Source: Escherichia phage ID52
Strand: one strand, 5' to 3'
Length of the DNA: 5,538 bases
Sequence record: NC_007825.1
The translations under genes and the position numbers were made by a program. This document shows positions 59-5,538 of this stretch, in pieces. Numbering within the stretch: position 1 is the stretch's first letter; the number at the start of each line of letters is the position of its first letter. The notes beneath the pieces are model-generated. The model did no database searches. It worked only from the letters and a program-made list of their open reading frames with translations, and was not told the DNA's origin.

Positions 59-1723
59 ATGTTTAAAACTCATTCTGACTACTTCAATAAACCAAACATC
101 GACGCAATCAAACCACTCGTCGAAACTGCTGGTATGTCTGTTCTTACTCAGTCTCCAAACCTCCGTATCTGGAAACAGTGCAATACTCGTATCAAACTTC
201 TTGAAGAAATCCTTGCTCATTATACGAATGGTATTCGCCGTGATGATAATGGTGACTTCTGGATGAATCCAAACTCTCAACTCGCAACCACTATTGCCTA
301 TCGTGCCCACCAAAAAGGCCACAATCCTAAATTCAAACAATACCCAGAGTCGTTTACTCTGGATGACATTATTACTGGCAAACCAATCCCTCAAACCGCC
401 CCTGACGAATTACAACTCTCCGATGAAATCGGTGAAGACTACCGTCTTACAGTCCTCTCCATAATCGAAGAACTGCAAGAATGTTACGATGTGCTCGGAC
501 AACTTGATATTAATAACACTATAGACCACAAACCCCTTGGTAATACTCACTGGGACTTACTCTATGAAAAACCCGTATACAAACATTGGACTCAACTCGT
601 TTCAAAACGACCCCTTAAAGATATCCGCGCCGATTACAACTATGCAAAGGCGAAGGGTATTAAGGATGAATGCTCAAAAATCTTGGAGGAATCTACTATG
701 AAGTCCCGTCGTGGATTTACCGTCCAAAGATTGATGAATGCTATGCGTACAGCCCATACTCAGGGCTGGTATGTGGTATTCGACACTCTTACCCTAGCCG
801 ATGACCGCTTAAAGGATTTCTATGATAATCCCAATGCTCTTCGTGACTACTTCCGTGGTATTGGTCGTATGGTTCTTACTGCCGAGGGTCGCTCGGTGCA
901 TGAGTCATCTGCCGACTGCTATCAGTATTTTTGTGTGCCAGAGTATGGTACACAGCACGGTCGTCTACATTTCCACGCAGTGCATCTTATGCGCACACTT
1001 CCTTTGGGTTCTCTGGACCCTAACTTCGGTAAGTTGGTACGCACTAATCGGCAAATAAATAGCTTGCAAAACACGTGGCCTTATGGTTACTCTATGCCCA
1101 TCGCAGTCCGGTACTCCCAAGATGCTTTCTCTCGTGCTGGCTGGCTCTGGCCTGTGGATGCAAAGGGTGAACCCCTTAAAGCTACCTCGTATATGGCTGT
1201 AGGCTTCTACGTTGCTAAATACGTTAATAAAAAATCAGATATTGACATGGCCGCAAAAGGCCTAGGGAATAAAGAATGGAACAATTCGCTCAAAACCAAA
1301 ATCAACCTCATACCCAAGAAGGTGTTCAGAATCCGAATGTCCCGCAACTTCGGAATGAAGCTACTCTCAATGGCTCACCTGTCAGCGGAAACTCTGATGG
1401 AACTGACCCAAGTGGGCTACGACGTGACCCCGTTCAACAACATCTTGAAGCAGAACGCCAAGAAAGAGCTCAAATCGAGGCTGGCAAAGAAATCTGTCGC
1501 AGACGTTTTGGAGGCGCAACCTGTGACGACCAATCTGCTAAAATTCATGCGCAATTTGACCCGAACAATCGGAGTGTCCAGCCTACAGAGTTTTATCGCT
1601 TCAATGACCACGAAATTATCAAGTACGGATATTTCTGATGAAACCAAAACTTACGTTGCTGATGCAGGAATTGCTGTTGCTAACTTACGAATTAAATCGA
1701 AGTGGACTGCTGGTGGAAAATGA
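59..1723 (+). CDS. A: Replication initiation protein A (HUH rolling-circle endonuclease)
   Basis: ORF 32..1723; preferred start is ATG 59, preceded by GGAGG (48-52) at 6-nt spacing, giving 554 aa. Strong recalled similarity to phiX174/G4 protein A along the whole length, including HFH (nt 968-976) and [10 protein letters not shown] with catalytic tyrosines (codons 1208-1210 and 1220-1222). Contains the origin sequence at 500-529. Confidence 0.92.
500..529 (+). other. Viral (+) strand rolling-circle origin; protein A nick site between G506 and A507
   Basis: Exact match to the conserved 30-nt Microviridae origin as I recall it, CAACTTGATATTAATAACACTATAGACCAC, located inside gene A and encoding ...[10 protein letters not shown]... 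Confidence 0.88.
698..1723 (+). CDS. A*: Protein A* (in-frame internal restart within A, C-terminal 341 aa)
   Basis: In-frame ATG at 698 (STM-KSRRGF...) at the position homologous to the phiX174 A* start; predicted 341 aa, the same length as phiX174 A*. Whether it is expressed cannot be read from sequence. Confidence 0.65.
1276..1638 (+). CDS. B: Internal scaffolding protein B (overprinted inside A in a different frame)
   Basis: 120-aa [11 protein letters not shown]...[10 protein letters not shown]...[15 protein letters not shown], matching recalled phiX174/G4 protein B, including the [10 protein letters not shown] motif and aromatic C-terminus. Stop TGA 1636-1638 overlaps the K start. Confidence 0.9.
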
Positions 1724-2560: not shown

Positions 2561-3844
2561 ATGTCTAACGTTCAAACTTCTGCGGACCGCGTACCTCATG
2601 ACTTATCTCATCTCGTTTTTGAAGCTGGTAAAATCGGCCGCCTCAAAACTATCTCTTGGACACCTGTTGTTGCTGGTGACTCTTTCGAGTGTGATATGGT
2701 TGGTGCTATTCGTCTGTCCCCTCTTCGTCGCGGCCTCGCTGTTGACTCACGTGTTGATATCTTTTCTTTCTACATCCCACACCGTCATATCTATGGTCAG
2801 CAGTGGATTAACTTTATGAAGGATGGCATTAATGCCACCCCTCTCGCTCCTGTTACTTGCTCATCTGGCTGGGACTCTGCTGCGTATCTCGGTACTATTC
2901 CGTCCTCTACGCTCAAAGTGCCTAAATTCTTACATCAAGGCTATCTGAATATTTATAACAACTACTTTAAGCCGCCTTGGTCTGACGACTTAACTTATGC
3001 TAACCCGTCCAATATGCCTGAACAGGATTACAAATGGGGCGTGCGTGTCGCTAACCTTAAATCTATCTGGACCGCACCACTGCCACCGGATACCCGTACA
3101 TCTGAAAACATGACTACTGGTACATCCACTATTGACATTATGGGCCTACAGGCCGCATATGCTAAATTACACACGGAACAGGAACGTGATTATTTCATGA
3201 CCCGTTACCGTGACATTATGAAAGAGTTCGGCGGACACACCTCTTATGATGGTGATAATCGCCCTCTTCTGCTTATGCGCTCTGAGTTCTGGGCTTCTGG
3301 CTATGACGTAGACGGTACTGACCAATCCTCACTCGGTCAATTCTCTGGTCGTGTTCAGCAGACCTTCAATCATAAAGTGCCACGCTTCTATGTTCCTGAA
3401 CATGGCGTAATCATGACTTTGGCTGTTACTCGCTTCCCGCCTACTCATGAGATGGAAATGCACTATCTTGTAGGCAAGGAAAACTTAACCTATACCGATA
3501 TTGCTTGTGACCCTGCGTTGATGGCTAACCTGCCTCCTCGTGAAGTGTCCTTGAAGGAGTTCTTCCACTCCTCGCCTGATTCTGCTAAATTCAAAATCGC
3601 AGAAGGCCAATGGTATCGCACACAGCCTGACCGTGTTGCATTCCCTTATAACGCTCTGGACGGATTCCCGTTCTACTCTGCTCTCCCGTCCACGGAACTA
3701 AAAGACCGTGTACTGGTTAACACTGATAACTATGATGAAATCTTCCAGTCTATGCAGCTTGCACACTGGAACATGCAAACTAAATTTAACATTAATGTCT
3801 ACCGTCACATGCCTACGACTCGTGACTCAATCATGACCTCGTAA
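2561..3844 (+). CDS. F: Major capsid protein F
   Basis: 427-aa ORF, MSNVQTSADRVPHDLSHL...GRLKTISWTPVVAGDSFE...LRLSPLRRGLAVDSRVDIFSFYIPHRH..., strongly matching recalled phiX174/G4 F. AAGGA at 2549-2553, 7 nt upstream of the ATG. Confidence 0.97.
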   Translation: MSNVQTSADRVPHDLSHLVFEAGKIGRLKTISWTPVVAGDSFECDMVGAIRLSPLRRGLAVDSRVDIFSFYIPHRHIYGQQWINFMKDGINATPLAPVTCSSGWDSAAYLGTIPSSTLKVPKFLHQGYLNIYNNYFKPPWSDDLTYANPSNMPEQDYKWGVRVANLKSIWTAPLPPDTRTSENMTTGTSTIDIMGLQAAYAKLHTEQERDYFMTRYRDIMKEFGGHTSYDGDNRPLLLMRSEFWASGYDVDGTDQSSLGQFSGRVQQTFNHKVPRFYVPEHGVIMTLAVTRFPPTHEMEMHYLVGKENLTYTDIACDPALMANLPPREVSLKEFFHSSPDSAKFKIAEGQWYRTQPDRVAFPYNALDGFPFYSALPSTELKDRVLVNTDNYDEIFQSMQLAHWNMQTKFNINVYRHMPTTRDSIMTS

Positions 3845-3980
3845 GGCAACAAAGGCCGCCCCTCTACTGGTCAGATGCCTGCCCAATGTGGGGCGGACCG
3901 TGCCTACGGAGATACCCGAATCTACGATACATGGACGGCGTAGCCGCCGTCCCTACTGCAAAGCCAAAAAGGACTAACAT
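3845..3980 (+). other. F-G intergenic region with stable hairpins; candidate complementary (-) strand origin of the G4 type
   Basis: 136-nt non-coding spacer. Perfect 8-bp GC-rich hairpin GGACGGCG (3933-3940) / CGCCGTCC (3945-3952) with loop TAGC. Second stem CCGCCCC (3856-3862) / GGGGCGG (3890-3896) enclosing a 27-nt loop. Small hairpin CCGT/ACGG (3898-3909). In G4 the primase-dependent complementary-strand origin lies in the F-G spacer. Confidence 0.6.
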
Positions 3981-4514
3981 ATGTTCCAGAAATTCATTTC
4001 TAAGCACAATGCTCCAATTAGCTCTACTCAGGTTACTGTTACTAAAACTCCGGCTGCCACGGCACCTGTTTTAGATGTGCCTGGCTTAAGCCGTTCTACT
4101 ATTCAAATCAATGTAACAACCACAGCCGTTACAACTCATTCAGGCTTGTGCCACGTTGTTCGTATTGATGAAACAAACCCAACAAATCATCATGCTCTAT
4201 CTGTTGCAGGTTCATTGTCGCATGTCTCTGCTGATATGATTGCTTTTGCTATTCGCTTTGAAGTCGCCGACGGCGTTGTTCCTACTGCCGTTCCGGCTTT
4301 ATATGACGTTTATCCTATTGAAATTGTCAATACTGGCAAAGCAATCTCATTTAAAGACGTTGTGACTATTGACTCACATCCCCGCACTGTCGGTAACGAC
4401 GTTTATGCGGGTATTATGCTCTGGTCTAACGCTTGGTCTGCCACCACTACCTCTGGCGTTCTCTCTGTTAATCAGGTAAATCGTGAGGCTACTGTTCTCC
4501 AGCCTTTAAAATAA
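3981..4514 (+). CDS. G: Major spike protein G
   Basis: 177-aa [13 protein letters not shown]...[10 protein letters not shown]...[18 protein letters not shown]...SGVLSVNQV...LQPLK; conserved C-terminal blocks match recalled G4/phiX174 G. AAGGA at 3969-3973, 7 nt upstream of the ATG. Confidence 0.95.
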
Positions 4515-4524
4515 GGATTATCCT

Positions 4525-5538
4525 ATGCTTGGTTCTGTCGTTGGTGGTATCGCCTCCGCTCTTGCTGGAGGCCTTACAGGTAAATTATTTGGCGGCGGTC
4601 AGTCCGCCAATTCCACCGGAGTGCAAGGTAATATTCTTGCCTCTGACAACAATGTTATTGGTGCTAATGATGCTGGTATTAAATCTGCTATTCAGGGTTC
4701 TAGCCTCCCTAACTTTAAAGAGGCTGCCCCCTCTGCTATCTCTGGGATTCTTGCCGATTCTGGCAAGCATGCGCTCTCGTCTCTTACCAATGCTGGTACA
4801 AATAAACTCATGGAAGCTGTCGGCCTTTCTAAGTCTGCCTCTGATAAGGGCAAGGATACAAAAGACTATCTTGCCGCCGCATTCCCCGAGCTCAACGCAT
4901 GGGAGCGCGCAGGTGCTGGTGCTTCTGGTGCAGGCATGCAAGATGCTGGCTTCCAAAATCAGAAAGAGCTAACCAAGATGCAGCTTGACAATCAAAAGGA
5001 AATCGCTAAGATGCAGAACGAAACTCAGAAGGAAATCGCTGGGCTTCAATCTATCACTTCACGCGAAAATACTAAGGATGCTGTCTATGCTCAAAATGAA
5101 ATGCTCGCGTATAACCAAAAAGAGAGTATGTCACGCGTTGGCGCTATTCTCGAAAACACAAGCCTCACCAAACAACAACAAACTTCTGAAATTATGCGGC
5201 AGATGCTTACTCAGGCTCAGACCACGGGTCAGCATTTTACAAATGAGCAAATCAAGGAGCTTACGCGAAAAGTTGGCGCTGATATTGATGCTGTTCGTGC
5301 TAACACTGAACGCACCCATGTAGAAACTGACCGCTCAAAACAGGAGGTTCAAAACTCCCGTTACGCTTCCTCGCAGGTAGGCAAAACCGCTAAGGACGTT
5401 TCCAATGCAATTACTGATACAGCTAGTTCTATTGTTGATTATTTTCGTGGTGTTGATCAAAAAGTGGCAGACGTTTACAACAACTATTTCAAAGATGGCA
5501 AATCGAAAGGAATAGAATCCAATCACCGTTCCAAATAA
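4525..5538 (+). CDS. H: Minor spike / DNA pilot protein H
   Basis: 337-aa ORF, Gly/Ala-rich N-terminus ([10 protein letters not shown]...KLFGGGQ), central [18 protein letters not shown] and [23 protein letters not shown] coiled-coil region, matching recalled phiX174/G4 H. AAGGA at 4513-4517, 7 nt upstream of the ATG. Stop codon is the last 3 nt of the window. Confidence 0.95.

Follow-up and report, generated by a model that had tools for sequence, protein, structure and literature searches.

We find that the intergenic spacer between genes F and G of this phage (positions 3845-3980, + strand) is the origin of complementary (minus) strand synthesis of a microvirus of the G4 species, a reading to which we assign a probability of about 0.93. 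The window, by which we mean the whole stretch of DNA that was analysed, is a complete microvirus genome of 5538 bases belonging to this species. The spacer is homologous to the origin of phage G4, it folds into the same hairpins, stems I and III of this fold covary among related phages, the trinucleotide CTG at the start site is invariant, and a site of the phiX174 type is absent from the window. By analogy with the biochemistry of G4, primase and SSB would be sufficient for priming, and the exact start and the length of the primer can be predicted. The origin in this genome is already known, being identical to that of a deposited phage, and no new mechanism is involved. One mildly new point concerns the apex of hairpin I, which varies within the pattern GCG-N(1-2)-AGC.

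Genome context of the F-G spacer

Over the full length, the window is 98.6% identical to Shigella phage vB_1081 and 98.2% to coliphage NC6, both of which are classified as Gequatrovirus G4, and approximately 91-93% identical to G4, ID11 and their relatives. All genes are located on the + strand in the order A, (B, K), C, D, (E), J, F, G, H. Gene F, encoding the major capsid protein (2561-3844, +), is the upstream neighbour of the spacer, and gene G, encoding the major spike protein (3981-4514, +), is the downstream neighbour. The ribosome-binding site of gene G, AAGGA (approximately 3969-3973, +), lies within the 3' end of the spacer. A previous reading of the letters alone, hereafter the sequence-only reading, had described the 136-nt spacer as the only long non-coding stretch of the genome, which is correct: the other gaps comprise 40 nt (J-F), 10 nt (G-H) and at most 58 nt (H-A). 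The counterpart of the spacer in vB_1081 is 100% identical, and the one in NC6 has a single base difference.

The viral-strand origin is separate from the F-G spacer and lies inside gene A. The 30-nt recognition sequence of the gene-A protein, for which we used what we take to be the conserved 30-mer, was found at 500-529 (+) as an exact match with no mismatch, with 0 such matches expected by chance. Microviruses package the coding-sense strand. Because the + strand holds all genes as well as the 30-mer of the gene-A origin, it is the viral, packaged strand, the last step of this argument being established knowledge of the Microviridae. The z-scores of the spacer fold, reported below, were equally good for the minus strand; the strand assignment of the origin is therefore based on the gene orientation, the position of the gene-A origin and the known packaging of the coding-sense strand.

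Several other features of the genome were noted in passing. With 5538 nt, the window exceeds vB_1081 and NC6 (5529 nt) by 9 nt. The additional nucleotides fall in a short, locally divergent patch (1954-1971) where gene C ends, immediately ahead of the gene D start; this patch reads ...CTGACAATAATGTCCGTACTAACAAAGG in the window and ...CTGACGCAAA---CC------ACAAAGG in vB_1081 and NC6, making gene C three codons longer. The second most stable single-stranded fold of the genome (4531-4676, -25.2 kcal/mol) is located in the early part of gene H; within it, at 4589-4610, is the perfect 7-bp hairpin TTGGCGG-CGGTCAGT-CCGCCAA. Gene A also holds a perfect 7-bp hairpin, CCAGAGT-CGTTT-ACTCTGG, at 344-362, about 140 nt upstream of the 30-mer at 500-529.

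Correspondence with the annotated G4 origin

The sequence-only reading had proposed that the spacer is a complementary-strand origin of the G4 type, and this proposal was borne out by the alignment with G4 together with the shared hairpins, the covariation and the invariant CTG described in the following sections. The spacer aligned end to end with positions 3884-4019 of the G4 sequence V00657 at approximately 95% identity. The GenBank features of V00657 include an 'RNA primer of replication' at 3970-3997 and an 'origin of compl. strand synthesis' at 3998, which map to 3931-3957 and 3958 of the window, respectively. Like the G4 origin, the element in the window is located in the F-G spacer on the viral strand and has three hairpins. 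The 8-bp stem I and the base of stem III are identical in the two origins, which also share the CTACTG start context and the 3' flank.

The window shows eight small differences from the G4 origin. They are confined to the loops, stem II and the sequence outside the hairpins; stem I, stem III and the CTG are free of differences. The loop of hairpin I is one nucleotide shorter than in G4 (GCGTAGC vs GCGAAAGC). In stem II, a T.G pair of G4 is replaced by T-A in the window, and a G-C pair by a G.A mismatch. Further changes comprise one in loop II, one in loop III, one beside the stop codon of gene F, and an additional A ahead of the gene G ribosome-binding site.

The window lineage and the alpha3-like phages share ATGCC in the apex loop of stem III and ACCCGA in the loop of stem II, where G4 has ATACC and ACTCGA. 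When the origin of ID21, an alpha3-like phage, was used as the query against phages, only NC6 and vB_1081 passed among the G4-like phages.

Fold of the spacer

Folded as single-stranded DNA, the spacer reached -28.3 kcal/mol, as compared with -17.3 +/- 2.8 kcal/mol for shuffled sequences (z -3.9), and none of the 200 shuffles was as good. Among the 136-nt segments of the entire genome, the most stable folds were found over the spacer (-29.7 kcal/mol vs a mean of -12.9 with sd 4.2). The minimum-energy fold contained the same three hairpins, III, II and I, in both the window and G4. The hairpin coordinates given here derive from folding and covariation.

Stem-loop III (3854-3899, +) was obtained in the minimum-energy and centroid folds of both the window and G4, and folds as in G4 with -12.5 kcal/mol. 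Its basal helix is formed by GGCCGCCCC and GGGGCGG(A)CC, in which A3897 is bulged, and its apical part reads TGG.CAG-ATGC-CTG.CCA. The stem CCGCCCC (3856-3862)/GGGGCGG (3890-3896) that had been pointed out from the sequence is indeed present and constitutes the base of this stem-loop. RNAalifold suggested a different pairing in the stem III region, CTGCCC with GGGCGG, which also occurs in the minimum-energy fold of alpha3 and is compatible with the variation. We prefer the classical pairing of stem III for the G4-like phages because the paired changes at the base are left unexplained by the CTGCCC/GGGCGG pairing; for the alpha3-like phages, either pairing may apply.

Stem-loop II (3907-3926, +; CGGAGAT/ATCTACG), the real second hairpin, was missing from the hairpins listed in the sequence-only reading. 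Its stem is weakened by the G.A mismatch (3909/3924), resulting in -3.2 kcal/mol as opposed to -5.2 kcal/mol in G4, and 10 of 200 shuffles folded equally well; the stem II of NC6 carries a further G.T pair. Among the G4-like phages, the apical pair of stem II is C-G, T-A, T.G or C.A. The alpha3-like phages do not conserve the 3' arm, and stem II is kept only in the G4-like phages. Because stem II is weakened in this lineage and its 3' arm is lost in the alpha3-like phages, our comparison suggests that it is the least constrained of the three stems. Either the weak stem II matters little, or the origin of this lineage is slightly impaired.

Stem-loop I (3933-3952, +) is the hairpin that serves as the primer template. 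Reading of the sequence and a repeat finder both confirmed the perfect 8-bp stem described before, consisting of GGACGGCG (3933-3940), the loop TAGC (3941-3944) and CGCCGTCC (3945-3952), and the stem was recovered in the fold. Hairpin I alone had -10.8 kcal/mol (z -5.1), equal to the energy of the G4 hairpin I. It is the only perfect hairpin of at least 8 bp in the genome, where approximately 0.5 are expected per shuffled genome.

Two smaller features from the sequence-only reading did not hold up as functional elements. The letters of the small hairpin CCGT (3898-3901)/ACGG (3906-3909) are present, but as a separate hairpin it was absent from the minimum-energy fold and had no covariation; it competes and overlaps with stems II and III, and its fourth pair is lost in the alpha3-like phages. 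The motif CTACTG, noted on both sides of the hairpins, does occur at 3864-3869, and the second copy is at 3953-3958 instead of 3954-3959. However, its repetition is not a significant signal, as the window contains five copies vs 2.7 expected and 26 of 200 shuffles reached five. The upstream copy is also not kept in the alpha3-like phages.

The two copies correspond to alignment columns 22-27 and 112-117, where the G4-like phages have CTACTG at both places, and each copy is preceded by GCCGCC. The alpha3-like counterparts differ from the two copies in like manner, being CTCCTG at the start site, and mostly CTCCCG, or CTCCTG in phiK and NC28, at the upstream position. The two copies may be a remnant of a duplication or a coincidence, and are statistically weak. 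Similarly, the last codons of gene F, GTCACATGCCTACG (3804-3817), resemble two separate pieces of the origin, namely GTCAGATGCCT at the apex of stem-loop III (3870-3880) and TGCCTACG before stem-loop II (3901-3908). These are short two-copy repeats, possibly due to chance.

Start site and predicted primer

The trinucleotide 5'-CTG-3' for initiation by primase is found at 3956-3958 (+), three nucleotides after stem I, and maps to 3996-3998 of G4. In G4, initiation takes place at the T of the CTG, 3' of the stem-loops (PMC6783573). The annotated G4 primer ends at T3997, which is equivalent to T3957 of the window in the alignment, with one indel in the loop of hairpin I. From this sequence correspondence, the primer start is predicted to be opposite T3957. 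The predicted primer RNA, which would bear a 5' triphosphate, is the computed reverse complement of 3931-3957 (minus strand), 5'-AGUAGGGACGGCGGCUACGCCGUCCAU, with a length of 27 nt by homology to the 28-nt primer of G4.

The start site is followed by a conserved 3' flank, GC(A/T)AAGCC (3958-3965, +), which is kept in all 22 phage origins compared and has one substitution in one plasmid homologue. In G4, the stretch 3' of the hairpins in which this flank lies is free of SSB and bound by primase (PMC6783573).

Conservation and covariation among phages

For the comparison, we collected 22 distinct origins, comprising eight G4-like origins from F-G spacers and 14 alpha3-like origins from G-H spacers, the latter including alpha3, St-1, phiK, ID21, NC28, WA13 and others. 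On the three-hairpin structure, 83.9% of the cells were paired, vs 32-46% when the 3' partners were slid by one to three columns. Stems I and III kept their pairing across both groups through compensatory changes, and four pairs had changes on both sides. Stem I was paired in 22/22 origins, with its fourth pair being C-G in the G4-like and A-T in the alpha3-like phages. At the base of stem III, one pair changed from C-G to T-A in alpha3, WA13 and WA45, and another from G-C to A-T in NC28 and Lilleven, two phages whose flanks place them in different alpha3 subclades. The covariation partly reflects few evolutionary events, and the change in stem I is a single clade split. The CTG of the start site was invariant in all 22 origins.

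The element is approximately 80% identical to its counterparts in the alpha3-like phages, as compared with 69-74% for coding DNA, and no nucleotide similarity is detectable in gene G. Because of this higher identity, we regard the origin as conserved on the other side of gene G. The primase-dependent origins of alpha3, St-1 and phiK (Alphatrevirus) share stem I, the base of stem III and the CTG with the window, as well as the 3' flank GCTAAGCC and a hairpin I apex of the form GCG-NN-AGC. They differ in their location in the G-H spacer, in the 3' arm of stem II, in the pairing of the upper part of stem III and in the start context, which is CTCCTG instead of CTACTG.

A different type of origin occurs within the same genus. 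The F-G spacer of ID2 (NC_007817, 3830-3928) is homologous to that of phiX174 and not to that of G4. The window and ID2 are 84% and 81% similar in the flanking parts, and this similarity is lost exactly over 3848-4467 of the window, which corresponds to the spacer and gene G. Because of this exact coincidence, the origin type and gene G seem to have been exchanged as one cassette within one genus.

The apex of hairpin I

At its apex, hairpin I carries GCGTAGC (3938-3944, +), which matches the mini-hairpin motif (GCGNAGC or GCGNNAGC). According to a review, the G4 sequence GCGAAAGC forms an unusually stable 'mini-hairpin' in a register different from that of the classical hairpin I (PMC13037366). 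For GCGNAGC with N=T, a Tm of 70 C is given (PMC13037366). The conversion of hairpin I into the mini-hairpin by SSB is an unproven proposal of this review, which itself describes recognition by primase as not demonstrated (PMC13037366). Our nearest-neighbour folding of hairpin I returned the 8-bp stem only.

Six apex forms were present among the 22 origins: GCGAAAGC, GCGAAGC, GCGTAGC (the window), GCGTTAGC, GCGTAAGC and GCGCAAGC. They vary only in the identity and number of the N bases, and the AGC of the 'loop' is unchanged in all 22 origins. All six forms fit GCG-N(1-2)-AGC and each is listed among the formers of mini-hairpins (PMC13037366), and three plasmid elements fit the motif as well. 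These three homologues keep GCGAAGC although their long stem is rewritten. From these sequence patterns, we tentatively speculate that selection at the top of hairpin I might act on the GCG-N(1-2)-AGC mini-hairpin and not only on the 8-bp stem, although we consider this rather doubtful. The weight of the apex evidence is modest because many unpaired columns of the element are invariant, too. Such selection, if true, would support the revised mechanism that has been proposed, with SSB melting the lower stem so that the remaining mini-hairpin either excludes SSB or is read by primase.

Related elements on plasmids

A search of plasmids found the homologous element on small Escherichia coli plasmids of 8.0-9.6 kb from livestock faeces (CP057337, NZ_CP062859 and CP057168). 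The elements are located at 1072-1207 on the minus strand of CP057337 (1495-1630 of locus L152), at 853-995 of locus L153 and at 1493-1630 of locus L154. Like the window, they possess a stem-loop III, the AGAGATACCCG block, the GCGAAGC apex and the start region CTCCCTCCTGCTAAGCC; the plasmid start region was also noted as CTCCTGCTAAGCC. Their stem-loop III is alpha3-like, and one plasmid adds compensatory variants (G-C, A-T). Unlike the window, they reside on double-stranded plasmids, where they occupy a gap without genes and face the opposite way to the genes, and their hairpin I stem is rewritten. In CP057337, this gap spans 1.7 kb, and the element is on the opposite strand to all annotated genes. 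The overall fold of the plasmid element was not more stable than that of shuffled sequences (z +0.4). G4-type single-strand initiation (ssi) signals are a known class of plasmid elements, and judging from its sequence, the plasmid element probably acts in a plasmid origin as a priming signal of the G4 type.

Two pattern scans were also run. The pattern TGTNGGGCGGACCGNGCC, used on metagenomes, was too loose, and the loci fetched with it had no blastn match to the spacer. A scan of a genome collection with AGCCGCCNTCCCTNCTGCNAAGCC gave one match, in an Actinomycetota MAG, which lacked hairpin I and is a chance match.

Alternative explanations for the spacer

The spacer might be imagined to be a primosome assembly site of the phiX174 type (n'/PriA), dependent on PriA, PriB, PriC, DnaT, DnaB, DnaC and DnaG. 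The PriA-dependent site of phiX174, which needs the full PriA primosome, lies in its F-G spacer and thus at the same position, and ID2 (Gequatrovirus talmos) from the same genus has a phiX-like F-G spacer with 77% identity over 70 nt (E 3e-11). However, the F-G spacer of phiX174 had no significant similarity anywhere in the window by blastn (best E 2.9), whereas the spacer of the window is 95% identical to the primase-only origin of G4. Because the phiX174 spacer remained without a match while the ID2 spacer, as the positive control, was matched at E 3e-11, we conclude that the window carries the G4-type and not the phiX-type signal. The contrast with the PriA-dependent site of phiX174 drawn in the sequence-only reading is thereby supported, and a phiX-type site in this spacer is extremely improbable. 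Equally improbable is that the hairpins are chance structures without function in a GC-rich non-coding leftover. One perfect 8-bp hairpin is not very rare in a shuffled genome of this kind, and the CTACTG repeat is insignificant. Chance would nevertheless have to account for the most stable fold of the genome, for compensatory changes in the stems, for conservation across genera at a different location and for homology to a GenBank-annotated origin with a mapped primer that was studied biochemically (PMC6783573).

A role of the hairpins mainly at the RNA level, whether in termination, in stabilising the mRNA through a 3' structure behind gene F or in regulating the translation of gene G, deserves slightly more weight and is still unlikely. 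The hairpins directly follow the stop codon of gene F and would form in the mRNA too, the ribosome-binding site of gene G is in the 3' end of the spacer, and microvirus spacers such as that of phiX174 hold weak terminators. Against a terminator, no terminator-like site, that is, a stem followed by a T run, was found on the + strand of the spacer. The search of the spacer against the Rfam families yielded no match with an E of 1 or below, which is what one would expect of a DNA element. Moreover, the element is retained in the alpha3-like phages in the other gene context (G-H), and the plasmid copies are on the strand opposite to all annotated genes, a pattern that fits a DNA signal and not an element of the F mRNA. 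An RNA role may still exist as a second function of what we interpret as a G4-type complementary-strand origin.

Proposed course of priming and comparison with known systems

Based on G4, the complementary-strand origin in the F-G spacer could operate as follows. After infection, the SSB of the host would coat the circular viral plus strand, while hairpins III, II and I would resist SSB, which would be phased and leave short SSB-free stretches on either side. The host DnaG primase, probably as two molecules, would bind the SSB-origin complex directly, and PriA, DnaB and DnaC would be unneeded. Primase would start the RNA primer opposite T3957 of the CTG (3956-3958) and copy hairpin I, producing approximately 27 nt, which DNA polymerase III would extend to give the double-stranded replicative form. 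For the G4 origin, priming with primase and SSB alone has been reported (PMC6783573). On either side of the G4 hairpins, approximately 30 nt remain free of SSB; primase is believed to act as two cooperating molecules, making a primer of up to 28 nt that is then taken over by polymerase III (PMC6783573).

The G4 origin, G4oric, is among the best-studied priming signals and a textbook model of how DnaG primase and SSB start synthesis on single-stranded DNA. The value of the present analysis is in annotation, as the origin, the start at T3957 and the predicted primer can be marked here and on relatives with an unannotated spacer. In addition, the natural variants, namely the weak stem II, the six apex forms and the plasmid homologues with a rewritten hairpin I, point to the parts of the origin that are constrained.

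Among other single-stranded phages, the n' site of phiX174 has the same genomic position and the same job as the origin in the window, which is to start the complementary strand on SSB-coated DNA, but the two are not homologous. The minus-strand origin of the filamentous phages M13 and fd differs from the G4 type in that the host RNA polymerase makes the primer in a rifampicin-sensitive manner, DnaG is not used, and the sequence is unrelated. Nevertheless, it shares with the G4 type the use of a hairpin on SSB-coated single-stranded DNA and the synthesis of one specific RNA primer.
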